Source of the DNA: an uncultured Verrucomicrobiae bacterium
GTDB lineage: Bacteria; Verrucomicrobiota; Verrucomicrobiia; Chthoniobacterales; JAFAMB01
Length of the DNA: 64,000 bases
Direction: 5' to 3'
Assembly: GCA_963762565.1 (NCBI GenBank)
Contig: CAVXLD010000007.1
Location: forward strand, 320,001 to 384,000
Each line of letters starts with the position of its first letter. The stretch's first letter is position 1. Of this stretch, positions 11,286 to 24,416 are shown piece by piece. The translations under genes were made by a program, and so were the position numbers. Under the pieces are notes generated by a model. That model was not told the origin of the DNA and made no database searches. It saw only the letters and a program-made list of their open reading frames with translations.

Positions 11286-11798
11286 CTAATTCCCGAATCG
11301 CTCCACACCGGCGTTCCACCATTCCTGAACGCGAGCCACTATTTCTGGCACGATGGCTTCGACCCTCGGACTCAGCTCTCGGCCGCAGTCAAACGAACTA
11401 CCAGCCACGGAGATCAATAGAGCCTTGGGGCTAGCGCCGTACATGGCCTGCGCATAACTCAGCAGATTCATCGCTGTGAAATAGTGGGTGTATGCGTCCA
11501 CCGGCTTCGGATCTGGATGAATGGTTTCGCAGGTCCAACTCCCGGGTTGCCCTTCGTAGCACGCATCGATGAAGATAACCAAGTTAGCCTCGCTGATCGG
11601 TTCCGCGAGTTCGGGTGTCAGTTGGTGCACCGCCAACACCTTGGTCGAGTCGCCGGCGAGCTTAGCCAGTTGATCAACCACTTGCCAGCCGATACCGTCA
11701 TCTCCACGTAGCGGGTTACCATACCCAATGATCAGCACTCCGGAGGGCGGTTCTCGCTTAGCTAGAGTTTCCGGCTTGTCAGTTGCGTTTGATTTCAT
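11286..11798 (-). CDS. hoxW: Hydrogenase maturation endopeptidase
   Basis: [17 protein letters not shown]...HQLTPELAE...VIFIDA; directly downstream of hoxH. Confidence 0.9.
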
Positions 11799-13266
11799 CC
11801 AGTACTTCCTTCCCAGGTCCGAGGAGTTGGATATGAAGCGGCATTCGACCGATCGCATGCGTCGAACAGCTCAAACAAGGATCGAAACAGCGGATCACGG
11901 CTTCAACCCGGTTAAGCATCCCTTCCTGCAGATGCGTGCCTTTAACATAGTGTTGTGCGACTTGTTTTACGCCGCGGTTCATGGCCAGGTTATTATGCCC
12001 GGTAGCGATGATCAAATTCACCGATTTGATCAATCCATGTTCGTCGATGGTGTAATGATGAAACAGCGTACCGCGGGGCGCTTCGGCAACCCCGACCCCC
12101 TCGAATCGGTTAGGCTCGGCAAAGGCTCGAACGTGTTTATCTAAGATGTCGGGCTCGTGCAAAATCTGTTCAATTCGTTCGATGCCGTACAAGATCTCAA
12201 CCAGCCGGGCGTAGTGCTGATGGAACGAGCTTAAGATTACCCCTCGATCCTGCGCCCGGAATTCGGTCCAGGCCGCGTCCGCCTTTGGTGTGCCGCACCG
12301 ATCGATGATATTCAGGCGAGCCAGCGGTCCCACTCGATAGATCCCATCGGGATAACCCGCCGGTTTGAAATAAGGCGATTTCAGATACGAGAACGGCTCA
12401 ACCGCCTCTGCCAGGTAATCCTGATACCTGGTTGGATCTACTCCATCCAATACGATGTTACCCTCAGCATCCATCATCCGCAGCACCCCATCATAATGTT
12501 CCAGCGCCGCCGCCTGCCTCAGTTCCCGCCCGTTCCCGCCTCCCGCGGCCGCGGGGCTCGGTTCTCGCTCGTTATTTGGAGCGACCAGACCCATGAACAT
12601 GCTGGGAAAATTTCCGAAAATGCGGATCTCATCCTTGAACTGTTCCTGGATGCCTGTATACCAAGCCAAGGTCCGCTCAATCATCGTGACGGCGTCGGGA
12701 AGCATTACCAGGATTCGTTCCCTTTTTTCTTCGGAGAGCGGTTCGCTGACACCACCGGGCACTACCCAGGCCGGATGAATTCGTTTACCGCCCAGCATGG
12801 CAATGATCTCCTGACCAAACTTGCGGAGAGCGATCCCATCCTTGGCGAGTTGTGGATGGGTTTCGATGACCCCGAAAATGTTACGTTTGGCTGGATCGCT
12901 ATCCATGCCAAACAACAAGTCGGGCGATGACAAATGGAAAAAACTCAGGGCATGTGATTGCACGAGTTGCGCCAGGTTCATTATGCGGCGGAGTTTGGCC
13001 GCCGTGGGCGGTATCTCCACCGCCAGGAGCGCGTCGCAGGCCTTGGCCGATGCCATGAGATGACTCACCGGACAGATGCCGCAGATCCTAGCCGTGATTG
13101 CGGGCATCTCGGCGAATGGACGCCCTTCGCAAAATTTTTCGAATCCACGAAATTGGGTGACGTGAAAACGAGCGTCCTGGACTTCACCCGCGTCGTCCAG
13201 CTGGATGGTGATTTTCGAGTGCCCCTCGATGCGAGTAACCGGATCGATAACGATTTCTTTGGCCAT
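11779..13266 (-). CDS. hoxH: Bidirectional [NiFe] hydrogenase large subunit (group 3d)
   Basis: TRIEGH, L1 [18 protein letters not shown]2 DPCLSCSTH with C-terminal extension. Confidence 0.97.
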
Positions 13267-13268
13267 GG

Positions 13269-13802
13269 CTAAGCTCCAAATCGGGTGAGACCAGTCAGAT
13301 CAGGTTTCGGTCCGGCTAATAATTGAGTTAGTACAAAATAGATGGTGTCGGCCGAGGGCGGGCACCCCGGGACAAATACGTCCACCGTTACATACTCATG
13401 CACCGGACGAGCCTTGGGTAGCAATGGGGGAACCACCTGTTTCGGCACTTGCCGATTCAGCTGCGCGTTTTCGATGTACGAACGATTCTCCAGATCCCGA
13501 ACCGAAAACCGGTTCCGCATACCGGGTACATTCGAAGTCACCGCGCAGTCTCCCAGTGAGACCAGGATTTTGCTTCGTTGCCGAACCTTCCGGATTTTCT
13601 CCAGATCCTCTTCACTGCTCACGGCCCCTTCGACGAGCACAATATCCACATTCTCCGGATACTCTTTGGTATCGACTAGTGGGCTGTAAACCAGATCAAC
13701 TAACCCGGCCAGCTCAAGCCAGCGTTCATCCATGTCCAGCGCCGACATGTGGCAGCCGGAACAACCATCCAGCCAAATTGTGGCTAGTTTCACTTTGCTC
13801 AT
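13269..13802 (-). CDS. hoxY: Bidirectional hydrogenase small subunit
   Basis: [20 protein letters not shown]. Confidence 0.95.
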
Positions 13803-14503
13803 CTTGGTTGTTGGCGCATGAGCGCCAGGTAGGGCAGAAACTCTCGCTGTTTCGCCATCTCAGCCACGGATTTGCCTTTTTCAAAAAGCGCACCAGTAGG
13901 ACAGACTTGGACACACTTCCCGCAACTTGTGCAGGTCTCAGAACTGCCCCATGGCTGATTCAAATCGGTGATCACCCGCGAATTGGTGCCGCGTCCCATT
14001 ACATCCCAAGTGTGAGCCCCTTCAATCTCATCGCAAACCCGAACACACCGGGTGCAAAGGATGCAGCGATTGTGATCGACCACGAAGCGATCATGCGACG
14101 CATCTACCGTCGCTTGGGGATACAGATAGGAGAATCGCACGTGCGTCATTCCGTGCTGCTGAGCCAGGCTCTGTAATTCGCAATGGCCGTTCGAAACGCA
14201 TACTGCGCAAATATGGTTTCGTTCCGCAAACAGCAGCTCCAGAATCATTAGCCGATATTTGCCCAACCGCTCGGTATCAGTCTTCACCTCCATGCCTTCT
14301 GAAACTTTGGTAACGCATGCCGGTAACAGTTTCGCGGAGCCCGCTACTTCCACCAGGCATAATCGGCAGGCGCCGGCTTCGCTTAGCCCTTCTAACCGAC
14401 AGAGTGTGGGAATCTTTATCCCGGCATCAGTCGCTGCCTCGAGGAGCGTTTGTTCATCCTCAGCACTCACATGCTGTTCGTTGATGGTTAACGTTTTAGC
14501 CAT
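13799..14503 (-). CDS. hoxU: Diaphorase Fe-S subunit
   Basis: IPTLC...CRLC, HICAVC...[24 protein letters not shown]. Confidence 0.95.
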
Positions 14504-14517
14504 AGCGTGGAAGTGAT

Positions 14518-14727
14518 CAGTAAGCGGTAAGCAGTAAGCGGTAAGCAGTAAGCGGTAAGCGGTAAGCGGTAATAGTGCTTGCGAACACAGGGGCTTGGAC
14601 GCAGGAACGTGTGCTTACTTTGTATAAATAACTTCATTAGAAGTTGGCAGGTTCTTACTGTTGTGATGTTTATTTTTCGAGTAGCTATTGCTTACCGCTT
14701 ACCGCTTACCGCTTACTGGTTTACTGG
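14518..14727. repeat. Inverted pair of heptamer tandem arrays (CRGTAAG / CTTACYG)
   Basis: 8 units at 14518-14573 and about 5 complementary units at 14691-14727, between hoxF and hoxU. Confidence 0.9.
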
Positions 14728-16319
14728 TTAGTGTCCTGGAGTAATTCCAGATACTCGTTTCTAAAATAACGGAGGGTACTTAGCACAGGATTTGGGGCGG
14801 TCTGTCCAAGGCCGCAAAGACTGGTGTGTTTAACCAAATCACAGAGCTCTTCTAATTGCTCCAAGTCTTTCAGAGTGCCCCGGCGTTCGACAATCTTGTT
14901 CAAGAGTTCGTACATTTGCACGGTGCCGGCCCGGCAGGGGATACATTTACCGCACGACTCCTCCATGCAGAACTGCATGTAGAAACGAGCCACGTCCACC
15001 ATGTTCGTATGCTCGTCCATGACGACCATGCCGCCTGATCCCATAATCGAGCCTAAGCTCACTAAGGATTCGTAATCGACCGGCGTATCAAAGTGTTCGC
15101 TGGGAATACAACCTCCGGAGGGTCCCCCGGTTTGCACTGCCTTGATTCTAGCTCCATCCGGAGCACCGCCTCCCAGATCTTGAACGATCTCACGAATCGT
15201 TATCCCGATTGGCACTTCAATTAGCCCGGTATTTCGTATCTTTCCGGTCAACGAAAAGACTTTCGTTCCTTTGCTTTTTTCCGTGCCCAATGCGGCGAAC
15301 CATTCTGGCCCTTTGTCCAGAATCGGGACGATGTTCGCATAAGTTTCGACGTTATTAATTAACGTAGGATAACCCCACAGCCCGCTTTGAGCCGGGAAAG
15401 GTGGACGAGGGTGCGGCTGTCCCCGTTTGCCTTCGATCGACGCCATCAGGGCCGTCTCTTCGCCGCAGACAAAAGCGCCGGCGCCGATGCGAAGTTCAAT
15501 ATTGAAATTGAACGGAGATTCAAAGATACCGCTCCCCAGCAAGCCATGATGTTTGGCTTGACGGATCGCGGTTTGCAGGCGGCTGACTGCCAGCGGGTAT
15601 TCAGCACGGACATAGAGGTATGCCTGGTCCGCCCCAACCGCGAAACCGGCGATCGCCATTCCTTCCAGTACCCGATGCGGATCGCTCTCCAGCACGCTGC
15701 GATCCATAAAAGCACCCGGGTCACCCTCGTCGCCGTTGCAGATAACGAATTTGTGCAGGCCCGGAGATTTTGCAACAGTACCCCACTTAAGACCGGTCGG
15801 GTAACCAGCGCCGCCCCGGCCGCGCAAACCGCTTTTGATGACTGCGTCGATCACCTCGGTTGGCTGCATTTCCGACAAAACATGATGCAACGTGCTATAC
15901 CCTCCGGCTTCGATGTAATCCTCGATTCGTTCCGGATCGATGCGTCCGCTGTTGGCGCATACGACCAAGGTTTGACGTCTGAAGAATGGATGGCTCGGGT
16001 CTCCCAGCTCGGCCTCAGCTACGCCGCCGGCGAGCGCCTCCACAATGGACGGAGCGTTCTCCGGAGTGACATATTGGTAAAGCAGGCCGCCCGGTTCTAC
16101 GGTCACCATTGGCCCTTGACCACACGAACCCATACAACCAACCCGCCGGACCTCTACTCGGCTGACCATGCCTTTGTCGGAGACAGCCTGCTGAAGCGTT
16201 TCTTTGATTTCGGCTGCTCGGGAGGACATGCAACCTGCAGCCATACAACAACGAATGCAGATTTCCTTTCGGGCCTGCTTTTCCTTCTCGGCAACCTCTT
16301 GCAATTGTTCAAGGACCAC
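14721..16319 (-). CDS. hoxF: Diaphorase FMN/NAD-binding subunit (NuoF-like)
   Basis: [52 protein letters not shown]...SLCGLG. Confidence 0.96.
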
Positions 16320-16809
16320 AACCGATGACTCCTTTTAGCTTTTCCACTGCATTGTCCGGTGTCCGATGACCCGCTACCACGCCGTCATAGACCACAGCCG
16401 GTCCGATGGCACAGGCACCGATACATCGAGCCGTCAAAAGCGATAGCTGTTTATCCGGCGTTGTTTCGCCCGACTTAATGCCGCCGAACTTTTCGATAGC
16501 TGCTAGTATCTTGTCAGCGCCTTTGACATAGCAAGCCGTACCCAGGCAGACCACGCAGGCGTGGGCGCCTTGCGGTTTGAGGCTAAAAAAGTTGTAAAAA
16601 GTAGCGACACCGTAGACGCGACTCGGTGGGACACGCAGTGCCTTCGCGACAAAAGTCAGCGCTTCGTGATCCAAATAACCGAACGATTCCTGGACCGTAT
16701 GCAACGTTTCAATCAGCGCGTGGCCTGCATAACCGAGGCGGCGCATCTTCGCATCGACGATTTTCCACCGTTTATCTTGTGATGGGAGAGACTGCTTTAT
16801 CGGTTTCAT
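16309..16809 (-). CDS. hoxE: [2Fe-2S] subunit (NuoE-like)
   Basis: GVATFY...CLGTAC...RCIGAC; first gene of the hox operon. Confidence 0.95.
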
Positions 16810-17339: not shown

Positions 17340-18542
17340 ATGATTACTCCCCACGTGATCGTGATTGGCGCCGGATCCACAGGATCGGCAACCGCCCACG
17401 ATTTAGCGTTGCGCGGCTTAAGTGTCACCGTCATCGAACGCGGCGAAGTCGCTTTCGGCACGACCGGGCGCAACCATTGTCTGTTGCATTCCGGCGGCCG
17501 CTACTGTGTGACCGACCAGGAATCCGCCATAGAGTGCATCGACGAGAATCTCATTCTGCGGAAGATCATGCCCGATCTTCTCGAATTGAATGACGGTCTT
17601 TTTGTGGCGGTCAGCGAAAGTGATCTTGCGTTCAAGCAAAAATTCCTCGAAGGCTGTGCCGCTTGCCATATCCCAGCCCGCGAGATTACCGTTGCTCACG
17701 CTCTGGCCATTGAGCCATTTCTTAACCCGGCGATTTTGACGGCAGTCCAGATACCGGACGGCGTTTTTGAACCATTCCGGTTTTGTCTGGCCTTTCTGGC
17801 GACCGCCCTCCAAAACGGCGCCACGGTTCGCACTTTTACGGAGGTCACTGATTTTACCTTTTCCAACCGGAACCTATCCGGCGTGAAAATCCACGATCAC
17901 CGGACGGGTAACGATGAAACCCTGGGCGCCGACCTGATTATCAACGCTTCCGGCCCATGGGCTGGAGAAATGGCCGCTAAAGCGGGAGTTCAGGTTCCAG
18001 AGGTGCCGACTGCGGGGGTGATGGTGGCACTGGATTGTCGCTTGAACAACATGGTTATTAATCGCCTCAACAAACCGTCTGACGGCGATATTGTTGTGCC
18101 GCAACGCGCTACTTCGGTGATCGGCACCACCTCCTGGGCGGTCGAAGATCCCGACTTAATTACCATACCGGCCGAGCACGTGGAGCGGATGATTTCCCAA
18201 GGGGAGCAACTATTGCCCGTCGTGAAAAAAGTGCCCATGCGGGCGAAGATGGCAGTTGCTCGGCCGCTCATTGCCACGGCTGGGACGGATGCTCGAGAGT
18301 TAAGCCGCACCTTCGAGTGTTTCGACCATGCTCGTGACGGCGTGAATGGCTTTGTCACGATAACCGGCGGCAAAACCACTACCGCACGCGCGATGGCCGA
18401 GCGCGTCGCCGACATCGTTTGTCAGAAGCTCGGTATCAAGGCGGAGTGTCGGACCCGAGATGTTCCACTTAGTTCTTACCGCTTGTTCTTTGCTAAACAG
18501 AATCTTTTTAAAAAAACGTCCCCGCTGCTGGCCGCAGGCTAA
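17340..18542 (+). CDS. GlpA-like FAD-dependent oxidoreductase (glycerol-3-phosphate dehydrogenase family)
   Basis: VIGAGSTG..A.DLALRG, GTTGRNHCLLHSGGRY.V.D.ESA.EC..EN, SDGDIVVP, ITGGKTTT.RAMAE. No C-terminal [2Fe-2S] domain. Start 17313 or 17340. Confidence 0.88.
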   Translation: MITPHVIVIGAGSTGSATAHDLALRGLSVTVIERGEVAFGTTGRNHCLLHSGGRYCVTDQESAIECIDENLILRKIMPDLLELNDGLFVAVSESDLAFKQKFLEGCAACHIPAREITVAHALAIEPFLNPAILTAVQIPDGVFEPFRFCLAFLATALQNGATVRTFTEVTDFTFSNRNLSGVKIHDHRTGNDETLGADLIINASGPWAGEMAAKAGVQVPEVPTAGVMVALDCRLNNMVINRLNKPSDGDIVVPQRATSVIGTTSWAVEDPDLITIPAEHVERMISQGEQLLPVVKKVPMRAKMAVARPLIATAGTDARELSRTFECFDHARDGVNGFVTITGGKTTTARAMAERVADIVCQKLGIKAECRTRDVPLSSYRLFFAKQNLFKKTSPLLAAG

Positions 18543-18564
18543 CCCGTTTAGGGAGGTATTTCGA

Positions 18565-19335
18565 ATGAACATGCTTAAGGTTCCAATAGAAATCTTCCGC
18601 TATAAGCTAGGGCAGCCGGCTCGTTACGATACTTTCACGATCGAAATCGCAGACACTGCCCATGTGATTGATGCGATTGATATGGTTTGGGCGAAGCATG
18701 ACCCAACTCTAACCTTTCGCCGAGCTTGTCACCATTCGTCGTGTGGTTCTTGTGCGTTGCGGATTAACGGGGTCGAGAAGTTACCCTGCATCGCTCGCAT
18801 AACCGACGTTTGGAATGGTAAAATGCCCGTACGCCTCGAGCCGCTTCGTAATTTCCCGGTTGTCAGCGATCTGGTAGTAGAAGTTGGCTACTTTTTTGAA
18901 CGGATGGCCGCTGCCGGAATGACAATTACCTGCGAAGCCGAAGGCTTCTTGCCATTGACTGTCGACAGCTTTGCTGTGGCTGACGTTCTTCCCAAAACCG
19001 TCGAACTACCGGAGAACCTTTCTCGGTTCAATCGGTTCGAGCAATGCATTGAGTGTGGGATTTGCATGAGCGCTTGCCCAACCATGGCGACCGACGACAA
19101 ATTTCTTGGGCCGGCGGGTCTAGCCGCCATTTATCAGGCTCGACAAAAAACGAATGATCCGGCAACGATTAAACATTTGTTAGGATTAGCCGACGGAGAG
19201 CATGGCGTTTGGCGGTGTCACAGTGCGTTCGAATGCACCGAGGCATGTCCACAAGCCGTTGATCCTGCCTCTAAGATAATGGCTTTGCGCCGCGAGCTCG
19301 CTCTCCGCCGGCTAAGAACGCTGTTCAAAAGATAG
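18565..19335 (+). CDS. sdhB: SdhB/FrdB-type Fe-S subunit
   Basis: CHHSSCGSC...C ([2Fe-2S]), CIECGICMSACP, CHSAFECTEACP; GGAGG RBS at 18552. Confidence 0.9.
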   Translation: MNMLKVPIEIFRYKLGQPARYDTFTIEIADTAHVIDAIDMVWAKHDPTLTFRRACHHSSCGSCALRINGVEKLPCIARITDVWNGKMPVRLEPLRNFPVVSDLVVEVGYFFERMAAAGMTITCEAEGFLPLTVDSFAVADVLPKTVELPENLSRFNRFEQCIECGICMSACPTMATDDKFLGPAGLAAIYQARQKTNDPATIKHLLGLADGEHGVWRCHSAFECTEACPQAVDPASKIMALRRELALRRLRTLFKR

Positions 19336-19337
19336 GT

Positions 19338-19727
19338 ATGTCAACGCTCAACTACAGTAAAGCCAAGCGAGCCGCTCGTTGGTTCGATGTGCGTGGGCGG
19401 AAATCCGGGATGTGGGCTTATGCTTTGAATCGTATTACCGGGATTGGTTTGGTTATCTATCTCTATCTTCACTTGGGAGTGTTAAGTACCCTGATAAGGG
19501 GCCAATCAGCCTGGGATTCGTTTGTGGCGCTAGCGCGTTCCCCATTCTATTTGGCGCTCGATGTGATTTTGCTTGCCGGCATATTAATTCATGGCCTTAA
19601 CGGCTTACGCCTGGCCGTGACTGGTTTCGGGTTCAATGTTGGTGCACAAAAAGCTTTCTTCGTTGTCTTAATGATTATCGGCGCAATCATTTTGATAATT
19701 GCCGCTTTGAAGATTTTCCAGGTGTGA
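19338..19727 (+). CDS. sdhC: SdhC-type cytochrome b556 membrane anchor
   Basis: NRITGIGL.IYL.LH...HGLNGLR; three hydrophobic helices. Confidence 0.85.
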   Translation: MSTLNYSKAKRAARWFDVRGRKSGMWAYALNRITGIGLVIYLYLHLGVLSTLIRGQSAWDSFVALARSPFYLALDVILLAGILIHGLNGLRLAVTGFGFNVGAQKAFFVVLMIIGAIILIIAALKIFQV

Positions 19728-20092
19728 ATATGACAGAACATTCCTTTGCTGAAGAATCGAAACCTACTGCGGCCTGGCTTTGGCAGGTATTCACCGGGGT
19801 CGGACTTGTAGTCCTGCTTGGGCTGCACATGATCGCTAACCATTTCGTGGCTAAAGGTGGGTTACGCGATTACGCCGCCGTGGTCTCCTACCTCCGGAAC
19901 CCGGTCGTTTTGACGCTTGAAGTACTCTTTCTCATTTGTGTAACCACTCATGCCTTGCTTGGCGTTCGGGCAATTTTTCTCGACTTTGGTCTGAACCAGC
20001 GCGCCGAGAAACGATTGACTAAGATTCTGAACATCGTCGGGGTTCTCACTGTCGGTTACGGGTTAGTGGTGATGTGGTTTGTTATCCGGTAA
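19724..20092 (+). CDS. sdhD: SdhD-type membrane anchor
   Basis: WLWQVFTG...LHM...HALLGVRAIFLD. Confidence 0.85.
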   Translation: MNMTEHSFAEESKPTAAWLWQVFTGVGLVVLLGLHMIANHFVAKGGLRDYAAVVSYLRNPVVLTLEVLFLICVTTHALLGVRAIFLDFGLNQRAEKRLTKILNIVGVLTVGYGLVVMWFVIR

Positions 20093-20280
20093 TGTTTGTC
20101 CTCGAGGGACCGAATGAAGGTAGCCAGAAATCGCGGCGAGTCCTTTGCTTCGGGCGACGCAACGGTTCTCATCAGCCTGACGCAGGCAATCCAAGATCGA
20201 TGTTCCACAATCGATGGTTAGTTCGGTCGCAATGCCTCCGTACAATTAGCTCATCAAGTTTATCACCACGGAGCCCATCT

Positions 20281-20754
20281 ATGAAAAGTTTAGTTTCCCA
20301 AGAGCCGGTTACGCACATCCAACCGTTTATTCGGAGGGTCGTAGTCGCAGTCGATTTAACCGCCCGTTCCACCACCACCTCCGAGTATGCAGTCAAGATC
20401 GCTAAATCCTTTGGTGCCTCGCTGCTATTCGTTTACGTCCATCCCATGGAAACTATGTTCAACTTTGTCATGAACGGTGGCTACGATCTGATCGACGAGG
20501 AGCAACTAAATCGGCGATATGCGCTCAGTAACCTGGTGGAAGCGGCCTGCAAAGAATATCCCTTCTGTACCTCCACTTTTTTGGTTGGCGATCCCGCTGA
20601 AGAAGTTGCTAAATATGCCCAAGAGACGGACGCCGATCTAATCGTAGTGGCTAGCCACCATCCGAATGTCCTGGCGAGCTTACTTCATCTCGACCAAGCT
20701 CCCAAGATGATCCATCGAGCGCCGTGTCCGGTGTTGGTTTATCAGACAGAGTGA
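20281..20754 (+). CDS. Universal stress protein
   Basis: VVVAVDLT...GDPAEEV...DLIVVASHHP...DQAPKMIHRAPCPVLVY. Confidence 0.9.
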   Translation: MKSLVSQEPVTHIQPFIRRVVVAVDLTARSTTTSEYAVKIAKSFGASLLFVYVHPMETMFNFVMNGGYDLIDEEQLNRRYALSNLVEAACKEYPFCTSTFLVGDPAEEVAKYAQETDADLIVVASHHPNVLASLLHLDQAPKMIHRAPCPVLVYQTE

Positions 20755-20757
20755 AAG

Positions 20758-21024
20758 AAGTGAGAAGTGAGAAGTGATTGGTAGAGTGCGCCGACGCCGT
20801 TGAGTGACATCGTTTGATTACTCCAACGCTCACTACTCCCCGCCGATCCCCCGATTCACCGTCCCCCCTGACGCTTACCAATCACTAATCACCAATCACT
20901 AATCACCAATCACTAATCACTTCTCACCTCTCACGCCTACTTCTCCCCGGCTAGCGCTTCGAATCCAGCGATCATAACTGCGAACAGCGAACGGTGAACG
21001 GTGAACCGCCAACCGCCAACCGCG
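20758..21024. repeat. Heptamer tandem arrays (AAGTGAG; ACYAATC/ACTTCTC; AACCGCC-type)
   Basis: 20758-20782 is complementary to part of 20877-20934; a third array lies at 20976-21024. Confidence 0.85.
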
Positions 21025-21070
21025 AAGCCCACCAACCCGCGGTTAAGCTCGAACAACCGCGGGTTGGTGG

Positions 21071-22483
21071 ATGTCCAAGGATCAGCCACACTTATCCACC
21101 GTGAAAAAGCACTATCAATTAGCAGTTGTGGGATCCGGATCCGGAGGTCAGGAGGCCGCGCTGGCTGCGGCAAAGGAAGGAATATCCGTGCTTTTAGTTG
21201 AAAAAGCGACTCTGGGCGGGACCTGTCTTCATCATGGCTGTTACCCTGTCCGAGCGCTGCGGGCGTGCGCGGAAGCAGCCAAGGATCGCCAGCTAAGCTC
21301 GAAATTCGGCCTGGAAAACGGTGGTAGCATGGTGGGTTTAGAAAAATGGCTTACCATTCAACGGCGAGTTAGCGCTCGCTTGACCCAAGATATAAACAAT
21401 CAACTCGAAAAAGCCGGCGTCACAATTCGGTTTGCCAAAGCTTCGCTCACCTCCCGGAATGAACTTCGGATAGCCAGCAGCCATGGCGAGATCGAGGAGA
21501 TCAAAGCTGACTACGTCGTAGTGGCTACCGGTTCGAGGCCCGCCTTTGAACCGAGGCTGTCTGGAACACACTACGTCAATAGCGATGCCTTGCTGACTCG
21601 AGCCGAGATACCGAAACATCTACTAATCGTTGGAGGTGGCTACATCGGCTGCGAGTTCGCTTCAATATTTCGTTCCTTAGGATCCGTTGTCACCCTTGTC
21701 GAAAGGGAGAACCGGTTGTTGCCAACTTGGGACGCTTCACTAGGCAGGTATATTGCTGACTGTCTGCGTTCGGCCGGAATCAATATTTTGCTTGAGCACG
21801 ATATGGACTTCCCAAGTCCAGGCCAGACCTTGGATGAACCGCTTATTGTCCTCGAGAACGGGATCCGCATTAACCCCGACCTGGTTCTGGCTGCGATTGG
21901 ACGGAAACCGAACATCGAAGATCTCGGCCTAGAAAATTTGGGTATTGAGACCAACCCTTTTGTGGTAGTCAATGAGCAACTGCAGACCAGTTGTCCGACA
22001 ATCTTCGCTGTCGGAGACATCAATGGATTAAGTTTGCTGGACAGCTCAGCGGTAGCGCAAGCTCGCATCGCGGTGGGTGCTATTTTCGGAAGGAAAGAGC
22101 CGTTCTCAGCGCGCTGGATCCCGCGATGTATCCATACGGATCCTCCGATTGCTTCTATCGGTTGGAACGAAGAAGAGGCGAATACAGCCGGCCTTGAAGT
22201 GATTTCTCATTGTCAGACTTTCCGGTTGGTTACGGATGATGAAAGAACGGTAGTGAATCCGTTGCCGACGATGGTGAAGGTTTTACTGCAACCCGAATCT
22301 CGCCAAATCATCGGTGTACACGTCGTTGGAACCCATGCGGCGGAGATTGTCAATCTCGCATCGATAGCAGCCCGGACTGGACTGACGCTTGATCAATTAC
22401 TGCAAGTTCCCTTAGTTCACCCCAGCGCGACTGAAGTGTTCCAGGAATGCGCCAAAGGTCTGGGGAAGGTCCCGGCGGGGTAG
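21071..22483 (+). CDS. Dihydrolipoamide dehydrogenase-like pyridine nucleotide-disulfide oxidoreductase
   Basis: GSGSGG, GGTCLHHGCYP, GGGYIGCE, IFAVGD, HPSATE. Confidence 0.85.
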   Translation: MSKDQPHLSTVKKHYQLAVVGSGSGGQEAALAAAKEGISVLLVEKATLGGTCLHHGCYPVRALRACAEAAKDRQLSSKFGLENGGSMVGLEKWLTIQRRVSARLTQDINNQLEKAGVTIRFAKASLTSRNELRIASSHGEIEEIKADYVVVATGSRPAFEPRLSGTHYVNSDALLTRAEIPKHLLIVGGGYIGCEFASIFRSLGSVVTLVERENRLLPTWDASLGRYIADCLRSAGINILLEHDMDFPSPGQTLDEPLIVLENGIRINPDLVLAAIGRKPNIEDLGLENLGIETNPFVVVNEQLQTSCPTIFAVGDINGLSLLDSSAVAQARIAVGAIFGRKEPFSARWIPRCIHTDPPIASIGWNEEEANTAGLEVISHCQTFRLVTDDERTVVNPLPTMVKVLLQPESRQIIGVHVVGTHAAEIVNLASIAARTGLTLDQLLQVPLVHPSATEVFQECAKGLGKVPAG

Positions 22484-22493
22484 GGGTCAGGGG

Positions 22494-22760
22494 GTTATGA
22501 GTTATGAGTTATAAGTTATAGGTTGTGGGTTGTAGTTCGCGCCTGCAATTTTCGCTGCGGTGGCTTCCGTGGGTTGGTTCTGGTGTGTTTTCGCTATCCG
22601 CTTAATCGAGCAAGACCGGAGCTTTGTTGACCAAAACGCGGATAGCAGGTCAGAGGGGAATCCGGGAAATTCGGAATCATGAAACCAGGTACGCGACGAG
22701 AATTAATAACCCTGCACGTGGTTACCTAAAACCCATAACAGATAACCTATAGCCTATAAC
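22494..22760. repeat. Inverted pair of heptamer arrays (GTTRTRR / CTATAAC-like)
   Basis: 6 units at 22494-22535 and 5 degenerate complementary units at 22726-22760, between convergent genes. Confidence 0.85.
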
Positions 22761-23421: not shown

Positions 23422-23463
23422 CTACAACCTACAACTTAAAACCTATAACCTACAACCTATAAC
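23422..23463. repeat. Heptamer array (CTAYAAC x6)
   Basis: ctacaac ctacaac ttaaaac ctataac ctacaac ctataac, abutting the deacetylase stop codon. Confidence 0.9.
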
Positions 23464-24324
23464 TTAACCTCTATCCCATGCCGCGAGGAAAGTATCCACC
23501 AACATCGGTAGCAGGTGGCTGTAACCTCCCTCTAAGATGGCGGCGGTGGGTAGGCCTGTTTCTCTGAGTCGTTGGCCAAGGCCGGCAAAATGTTCAGGCT
23601 GTAACGTCATATCGGTGAGTGGATCACCAGCAAAGGCATCAAAGCCGGCTGATACCAAGAGCAGGTCAGGAATAAACTGCAGGCATCGATCCAGTGCTTG
23701 GTGGAGGGCTGACATGTGCTCAGTAGCGTCGCTGCCCGGGGAGATCGGCCAATTGAACACATTGCCGCCAGAGCTGTTGCCAGTACCTGGATAGCCCGGG
23801 TATTGGTGGACTGAGGCGAACCGGATCCGATTATTACCGGAAACAATCGCTTCCGTACCGTTACCATGGTGGGCGTCGAAATCCCAGATGGCGACTCGTT
23901 CACAACCGGTGGCGATAGCGTGTAGTGCGGCGATGGCGATCGAATTTAAATAGCAGAAACCCATCGCCTTGCTCGACGTGGCGTGATGGCCAGGGGGGCG
24001 CATAAGCGAGAAACTTTCTCGACCGCGAAGTGCCAGATCAATGGAACCAATCGCAGCTCCTGCGGCGCGGCGAGCGTGTTCGTCGATACCCGGATAGTAG
24101 GGGGTATCCGCGTCGAAATCGACGGGTTGCCGCAGCCGGTCCAGATGCTCCTGGCGGTGCCCGCGCAGGACCTCTTCCTCAGCGGCTAGTCGCGGTCTAA
24201 TCCAAGGCCAATCGGAGTGTTTATCGAGTAGATAAGCCTCGGTGTTGATCAACCGCGCCGGATGTTCAGGATGCTCATCCTGGCCAAACTCGGTCGCGGC
24301 TTTGTCATAGATCAACGTAACCAT
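23464..24324 (-). CDS. Histone-deacetylase-family (AcuC/AphA-like) Zn deacetylase
   Basis: HPEHPARL, RPPGHHA, GFCYLN, DFDAHHGNGT, SAGFDA..DPL, LEGGY. Confidence 0.95.
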   Translation of the reverse strand: MVTLIYDKAATEFGQDEHPEHPARLINTEAYLLDKHSDWPWIRPRLAAEEEVLRGHRQEHLDRLRQPVDFDADTPYYPGIDEHARRAAGAAIGSIDLALRGRESFSLMRPPGHHATSSKAMGFCYLNSIAIAALHAIATGCERVAIWDFDAHHGNGTEAIVSGNNRIRFASVHQYPGYPGTGNSSGGNVFNWPISPGSDATEHMSALHQALDRCLQFIPDLLLVSAGFDAFAGDPLTDMTLQPEHFAGLGQRLRETGLPTAAILEGGYSHLLPMLVDTFLAAWDRG

Positions 24325-24353: not shown

Positions 24354-24416
24354 CAAACACCTAACACCTAACACGTAAAACCTAAAACCTAAAACTTACA
24401 ACGAATAACCTATAGA
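24354..24416. repeat. Heptamer array (CTAAMAC-like, about 9 units)
   Basis: caaacac ctaacac ctaacac gtaaaac ctaaaac ctaaaac ttacaac gaataac ctataga. Confidence 0.85.

Follow-up and report, generated by a model that had tools for sequence, protein, structure and literature searches.

A GlpA-SdhBCD gene module in a Verrucomicrobiota genome, a likely glycerol-3-phosphate:menaquinone oxidoreductase on a complex II chassis

A 64,000-nucleotide stretch of an uncultured Verrucomicrobiae bacterium (assembly GCA_963762565.1, contig CAVXLD010000007.1, positions 320,001 to 384,000 of the forward strand; hereafter the window) contains a gene module in which a GlpA-type flavoprotein is followed by the SdhB, SdhC and SdhD subunits of a complex II. 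An earlier note on this DNA, made from the sequence alone, had described four coupled genes, and four open reading frames were indeed found there on the plus strand. We consider it likely that their products constitute one membrane-bound glycerol-3-phosphate (G3P):menaquinone oxidoreductase on a complex II chassis, an enzyme activity that we infer. The module has the following parts (positions within the window):

17340..18542, plus strand: GlpA-type flavin adenine dinucleotide (FAD) flavoprotein of 400 amino acids, DAO fold, tail-less, the likely catalytic head (open reading frame, profile and structure searches)
18543..18564, plus strand: spacer of 22 nt with a Shine-Dalgarno-like AGGGAGG and neither space for nor trace of a fifth gene (sequence)
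18565..19335, plus strand: SdhB-type Fe-S subunit of 256 amino acids (TIGR00384 over cut-off; open reading frame)
19338..19727, plus strand: SdhC-type membrane anchor of 129 amino acids (PF01127 over cut-off)
19724/19730..20092, plus strand: SdhD-type membrane anchor of 120-122 amino acids, starting with GTG at 19724 or ATG at 19730 (PF01127 over cut-off)

The genes are closely spaced: 22 nt separate glpA from sdhB, 2 nt separate sdhB from sdhC, and sdhC overlaps sdhD by 4 nt. A promoter scan returned 3 sites, compared to 3.1 expected. GlpA aligns to positions 1-378 of the 530 positions of model TIGR03377 and scores 443.6 bits, below the cut-off of 552.8 because the C-terminal tail is absent. 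The Pfam scan listed no C-terminal bfd-like [2Fe-2S] domain (PF04324) on the window GlpA, in agreement with the earlier description of a flavoprotein of about 400 amino acids devoid of it. A PF00890 match is confined to residues 5-42 and PF02910 is missing, which places the head in the DAO family and not in that of SdhA/FrdA.

The host assembly comprises 6.12 Mb in 15 contigs and is 93.7% complete. Neither glpB nor glpC was found over cut-off anywhere in it, and all four of its PF02910 genes lie outside the window; the window thus lacks sdhA/frdA, glpB and glpC, as had been claimed. Three of the four encode SdhA, and the fourth was read as NadB from its sequence and neighbours. Each of the three SdhA is accompanied by an SdhB of its own and, alongside, by a gene for a membrane subunit. 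On the contig of the module, the nearest PF02910 gene stands about 30 kb upstream. It was considered as an orphan sdhA that might partner the module, and was ruled out because its own sdhC and sdhB stand beside it.

The earlier note had left two explanations, either a hybrid quinone oxidoreductase for G3P (or a related substrate) or an operon that had lost an sdhA- or glpB-like gene, and it had proposed a survey of gene neighbourhoods, a phylogeny of SdhB and a multimer prediction of the GlpA-SdhB interface. Our genome scan found 153 relatives, of which the best 80 were kept as loci; they are mostly from Chloroflexota, and since the genomes are kindred, the counts do not represent independent events. 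The GlpA frame is complete in 76 of the 80 (385-412 amino acids in 75 of the 76; L047 breaks at 286). In every one of the 76, sdhB is the next gene after glpA. Where at least 2 kb of downstream sequence was available, sdhB, sdhC and sdhD were all present in 64 of 66 loci, a recurrence that argues against a chance gene order. The two exceptions are L031 (Bacillota), with a CCG-domain protein instead, and L061, without sdhC. No sdhA was found in any of the 80 loci, none of which matched any host SdhA-family protein. In the surroundings, glpK lies upstream of glpA in 66 of the 80 loci (54 of the 60 with room for it), and dhaK, dhaM and glpF occur in 46, 42 and 41 of the 80, respectively. Two further genes recur in these glycerol operons and are unexplained, one methyltransferase-like, of about 200 amino acids with conserved cysteines (L063:3831-4433; 41 clustered loci), the other a two-helix membrane protein of 80-110 amino acids with no Pfam match (L057:5493-5762).

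A metagenome scan, seeded with a GlpA-SdhB fusion, gave 79 loci. GlpA and SdhB are both visible in 72 of them; the remaining 7 hold one only, 6 of the 7 being cut before SdhB. The two proteins are fused in 8 of the 72, some of these being near-identical, and in the protein database the five best longer homologues are natural GlpA-SdhB fusions as well. There is glpK in 44 of the 79 metagenome loci and sdhA in none. Among 51 metagenome loci with room for the anchors, 47 contain two anchor frames, one an SdhB-SdhC fusion followed by SdhD, and three a long SdhB; of the latter, two were checked and both carry a CCG domain. The anchor variants (L031:7170-8183, L196:4954-6738, L218:4923-6773 and L233:5150-6298) include a CCG domain, separate or fused to SdhB, that replaces SdhCD, and also the SdhB-SdhC fusion; an ETF gene follows the variant of L196. 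In L027, a GlpABC and a GlpA-SdhBCD type stand side by side. Two cultured Thermanaerothrix strains (L070, L071) carry the module. A plasmid collection gave 40 matches, all below 60% identity; the 25 listed show 39-45%, like canonical GlpA. Given the linkage of glpA and sdhB in 76 of 76 loci and the absence of sdhA from all 80 genome and all 79 metagenome loci, the idea that an sdhA or glpB has dropped out of the operon is refuted. The glpA-sdhBCD set is a conserved unit and not a product of deletion.

The residues expected of such an enzyme are retained. All 61 of 61 short GlpA share H50, R54, Y55, R308, R323 and K345, which align to H50, R54, Y55, R317, R332 and K354 of E. coli GlpD, taken here to be the G3P-binding site; 115 of 115 canonical GlpA have these residues too. 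At seven active-site positions, the short (61), canonical (115) and fused (5) GlpA are all identical. None of the 11 cluster cysteines is missing from SdhB; they were assigned by alignment to 1kf6_B and 1nek_B and by the usual SdhB pattern: C55, C60, C63 and C75 to [2Fe-2S], C161, C164, C167 and C228 to [4Fe-4S], C171, C218 and C224 to [3Fe-4S]. In complex II, the first of these clusters sits in a loop that faces the flavoprotein, and precisely this loop is remodelled here (CHHSSCGSC). Its position +4 is S, T or N in 77 of 77 GlpA-linked SdhB and I, V or K in 30 of 30 SdhA-linked ones. We took +4 as the marker because glycine at +3, which was tried as well, proved imperfect: it is present in 28 of 30 SdhA-linked sequences, but also in 9 of 72 metagenome GlpA-linked motifs. 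In the anchors, H45 and H85 of SdhC and H33 and H74 of SdhD are invariant, and these four histidines are kept in 36 of 36 and 35 of 35 anchor sequences; H38, Y54 and E64 of SdhD are invariant too. The four histidines match His C47, C87, D65 and D107, respectively, which the available part of the description of Mycobacterium smegmatis Sdh2 gives as its heme ligands (PMC7447783).

The complex was modelled from GlpA 1-386 and SdhB 1-252, with an alignment of 61 rows each and 3 controls. The pair scored 0.93, the best control 0.00; the model has about 198 contacts, at least 95% contact agreement between runs and a partner pLDDT (predicted local distance difference test) of 91. Of 157 solved complexes, 116 attain the score mark used, compared to 2 of 215 mismatched pairs, rates that are only approximate with user-made alignments. 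No GlpA chain is among the PDB matches listed, so that the high score is unlikely to reflect a solved GlpA-SdhB pair already known to the predictor. In the model, the [2Fe-2S] loop of SdhB (52-62, 75-76) meets GlpA 35-47, 142-147, 232-238, 254-258 and 379-386, and GlpA 35-47 is the FAD-side loop. Among the conserved positions of GlpA, 11 of 20 at the interface and 32 of 128 elsewhere depart from the canonical protein, an enrichment at this face (Fisher p 0.015, for kin that are not independent). N84, R147, Q255, R256 and R301 are kept in 5 of 5 fusions. The prediction thus came out in favour of an interface; it supports, and does not show, that GlpA and SdhB bind each other, and it predicts that GlpA occupies the position of SdhA in complex II.

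This bears on another explanation, according to which sdhA was lost or SdhBCD borrows an SdhA from elsewhere while GlpA acts alone. SdhA is indeed encoded elsewhere, over cut-off in 32 of 38 genomes carrying the module and likewise in this host. However, these proteins have SdhB of their own (27 of 30 fetched sdhA loci contain one), sdhA is found in 0 of 159 module loci, the natural fusions join SdhB to GlpA, the [2Fe-2S] loop of SdhB is changed and the model predicts binding to GlpA. We regard a missing or borrowed SdhA as extremely unlikely.

The trees are in line with a dedicated pair. Short GlpA form a single group compared to canonical GlpA and GlpD (Shimodaira-Hasegawa-like approximate likelihood ratio test 100; 51 rows) and group with GlpA, away from GlpD. 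An SdhB tree was made by a quick method from 67 sequences (43 of the 77 GlpA-linked and 24 of the 30 SdhA-linked; 6 short fragments were dropped). Within it, the GlpA-linked SdhB lie on one side of a branch with support 86. Two SdhA-linked operons, L108 and L117, have the order A-B-C and the loop CRHAICGSC, and their anchors score best against the GlpA-linked SdhC model. Their lineage is a possible source of the module.

We suggest the following electron path for the G3P:menaquinone oxidoreductase. G3P would be oxidized to dihydroxyacetone phosphate (DHAP) at the FAD of GlpA, with release of two electrons. These might pass from FAD to the [2Fe-2S], the [4Fe-4S] and the [3Fe-4S] cluster of SdhB and reach menaquinone by way of the two b hemes in SdhCD. 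The [2Fe-2S] cluster of SdhB would stand in for the [2Fe-2S] tail lost by GlpA, and SdhBCD would take over from GlpB and GlpC. The host contains a futalosine-pathway menaquinone gene; menB was not found in it over cut-off. Transfer from G3P (about -200 mV) to menaquinone (-75 mV; values from the accessible portion of the PMC11962113 supplement) is downhill. The substrate, direction, quinone and quinone site in use are what we infer; downhill oxidation of G3P would need no drive from an outer site. Taken together, conserved gene order, natural fusions, retained residues and the predicted interface support the hybrid oxidoreductase that the earlier note had put forward.

The design has a published precedent. 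In the parts of Schmerling et al. 2025 (PMC11962113) available to us, GlpA-SdhBCD is named, from gene order and with the tail loss noted, for the archaeon Thermofilum pendens (Tpen_1127, A1RZ95); membrane anchoring and electron transfer are proposed there for an archaeal subcluster only, while canonical bacterial glpA is said to go with glpB and glpC. As in T. pendens, our GlpA is almost without C-terminal extension and is followed by counterparts of sdhB, sdhC and sdhD, and it is by this tail loss and gene order that we liken the two; unlike it, the module described here is bacterial and comes with fusions and anchor variants. Searches of the open literature, which leaves subscription journals aside, found only that paper and its preprint on the design, and nothing on a bacterial GlpA-SdhBCD.

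Compared to GlpABC (E. coli; TIGR03377/8/9), the catalytic domain is about 41-44% identical and the active site is conserved, but the [2Fe-2S] tail, GlpB and GlpC are lacking and a b-heme anchor is present instead. M. smegmatis Sdh2 (PDB 6LUM) is the best structural relative of both anchors. As far as its available description goes (PMC7447783), it shares the three-cluster SdhB and SdhC plus SdhD with four heme histidines; the module differs from it in having no SdhA-family flavoprotein and an altered [2Fe-2S] loop. Without SdhA, interconversion of succinate and fumarate is not to be expected of the module, and because its donor couple lies at a lower potential than menaquinone, electron transport need not run in reverse. 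GlpA-CoxG of Sulfolobus acidocaldarius, in the same accessible parts of PMC11962113, also has a truncated GlpA, which oxidises G3P without GlpB and GlpC. Unlike the module, it keeps a tail of about 50 amino acids, forms a dimer and reduces quinone directly; CoxG serves as its anchor, and there is no Fe-S wire. The module is probably GlpABC-like in chemistry and diheme complex II-like in wiring while being a member of neither, and probably fits the published GlpA-SdhBCD kind.

Several observations weigh against an oxidizing G3P enzyme, or at least against parts of its support. Firstly, no source of G3P is seen in the assembly, because both glpK (none over cut-off, best 212 of 590 bits) and glycerophosphodiesterase are absent from it. 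Secondly, glpK is absent from the loci of the closest homologues (L001-L004, L006, L008, L011), although 4 of the 5 tested have it elsewhere, over cut-off. Thirdly, a downhill reaction needs no two-heme anchor. Diheme succinate dehydrogenases, as far as the source is available (PMC12663545), rely on the proton potential and an outer site to drive an uphill step; here, use of the outer site would spend proton motive force. Finally, 4 of the 11 clade-specific interface positions belong to the C-terminal motif, the place at which the canonical protein runs on into its tail, and the quick SdhB tree came with long-branch warnings.

The lack of adjacent glpK in the window and in its nearest homologues, together with the many substrates handled by the DAO fold, could mean that the complex is real and acts on a related polyol phosphate or a hydroxy acid, at least in the soil subgroup outside the glycerol operon. 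However, the active-site residues are identical to those of canonical GlpA, and the window GlpA is 65-76% identical to the copies from glycerol operons and nests among them. We find such a substrate very unlikely. As a sign of another function, the missing glpK is also weakened by its surroundings: in relatives, glpF-glpK-glpD stands between purE, tsaC, rsmI, queG, argG and tsaE, and the assembly lacks these six along with glpF, glpK and glpD. Because these six housekeeping genes are missing as well, the absence points, without proof, to an assembly gap. The same-genus genome G008, that of L002, contains both glpK and glpD.

G3P oxidation, which we continue to prefer, has also to be weighed against its reverse, a menaquinol:DHAP reductase that would make G3P for phospholipids in bacteria without the NAD(P)H-dependent GpsA. 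In the host, gpsA is deleted from an intact syntenic site: at C10:421195-421513, only 318 bp lie between flanking genes that are syntenic with those of same-genus G009, where the distance is 1258 bp, and tblastn gave no hit for gpsA. Besides, 30 of 38 module-carrying genomes have no PF07479 match, and this assembly has neither glpK nor glpD. A distribution survey, in its accessible part, counts GlpA/GlpD among possible G3P-forming enzymes (PMC5059525). In the order, gpsA is present in 19 of 36 family relatives and in 24 of 24 genomes outside the family. A connection between its loss and the module was nevertheless unsupported by a class-wide control of 151 genomes of the Thermanaerothrix class, in which carriers were scored by GlpA-type SdhB rather than by individually verified glpA adjacency. 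There, 30 genomes have GlpA-type SdhB, 32 a gpsA-family match and 130 glpK. The loss is class-wide in this Anaerolineae-centred sample (3 of the 30 carriers have gpsA, as do 29 of the 121 non-carriers; p 0.13), and glpK offers another route to G3P in those 130 genomes, including 29 of the 30 carriers. Same-genus G006, G007 and G010 (81-95% complete) have neither gpsA nor the module, yet they have glpK-glpD. Reduction of DHAP by menaquinol is moreover about 125 mV uphill, and with an outer quinol site it would have to work against the membrane potential as well. The reversed complex is thus in our opinion very unlikely; if it were true, a complex II chassis would have been made biosynthetic, as a new route to G3P. 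In the class sample, 119 of the 151 genomes are without gpsA-family match, which leaves unexplained where their lipid G3P comes from when no external glycerol is supplied.

In the usual picture of complex II, the SdhA-SdhB core is fixed and the anchors are interchangeable. In the module, it appears to be the head that was exchanged: SdhB is paired with a flavoprotein from a different family, and the two faces of the predicted interface show changes that match each other. If confirmed, this would be a further architecture for respiratory G3P oxidation, and one that is open to misreading as a spare succinate dehydrogenase; about one fifth of the sampled class (30 of 151 genomes) has the GlpA-type SdhB. 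That the design is already in print limits the surprise. Particular to this copy are its Verrucomicrobiota host, the Hox hydrogenase neighbour and the deletion of gpsA at its usual site. The cultured carriers and single-chain fusions make a direct test feasible.

A full short GlpA was found in 3 of 36 family relatives and in 0 of 24 other genomes of the order; one more contains a fragment. Verrucomicrobiota copies nest among those of Chloroflexota in both the GlpA and the SdhB tree, which suggests that the module reached its host by transfer, probably from Chloroflexota. The host also has a dhaK-dhaL-dhaM/phosphotransferase system cluster (C5:303472-308057) that resembles the one in glycerol operons of Chloroflexota but is not linked to the module. 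Another dhaL-dhaK pair lies at C3:657434-659104.

Upstream of the module, as context, lies a divergent operon:

11779..16809, minus strand: hoxEFUYH-type bidirectional NiFe hydrogenase genes (open reading frames, searches)

A functional link between module and hydrogenase was dropped, since the two stand back to back in only 1 of 80 homologous loci, that of the same-genus genome (L002). Downstream follow genes for a universal stress protein (20212-20754) and a dihydrolipoamide dehydrogenase/transhydrogenase-like flavoprotein (21071-22483), and similar genes occur near the module in L001, L006 and L008. Eight short intergenic tandem arrays, with 7-bp units of differing sequence, are scattered over this part of the window:

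14518-14572: tandem array
14690-14716: tandem array
20756-20777: tandem array
20877-20928: tandem array
20976-21026: tandem array
22494-22524: tandem array
23422-23467: tandem array
24356-24395: tandem array

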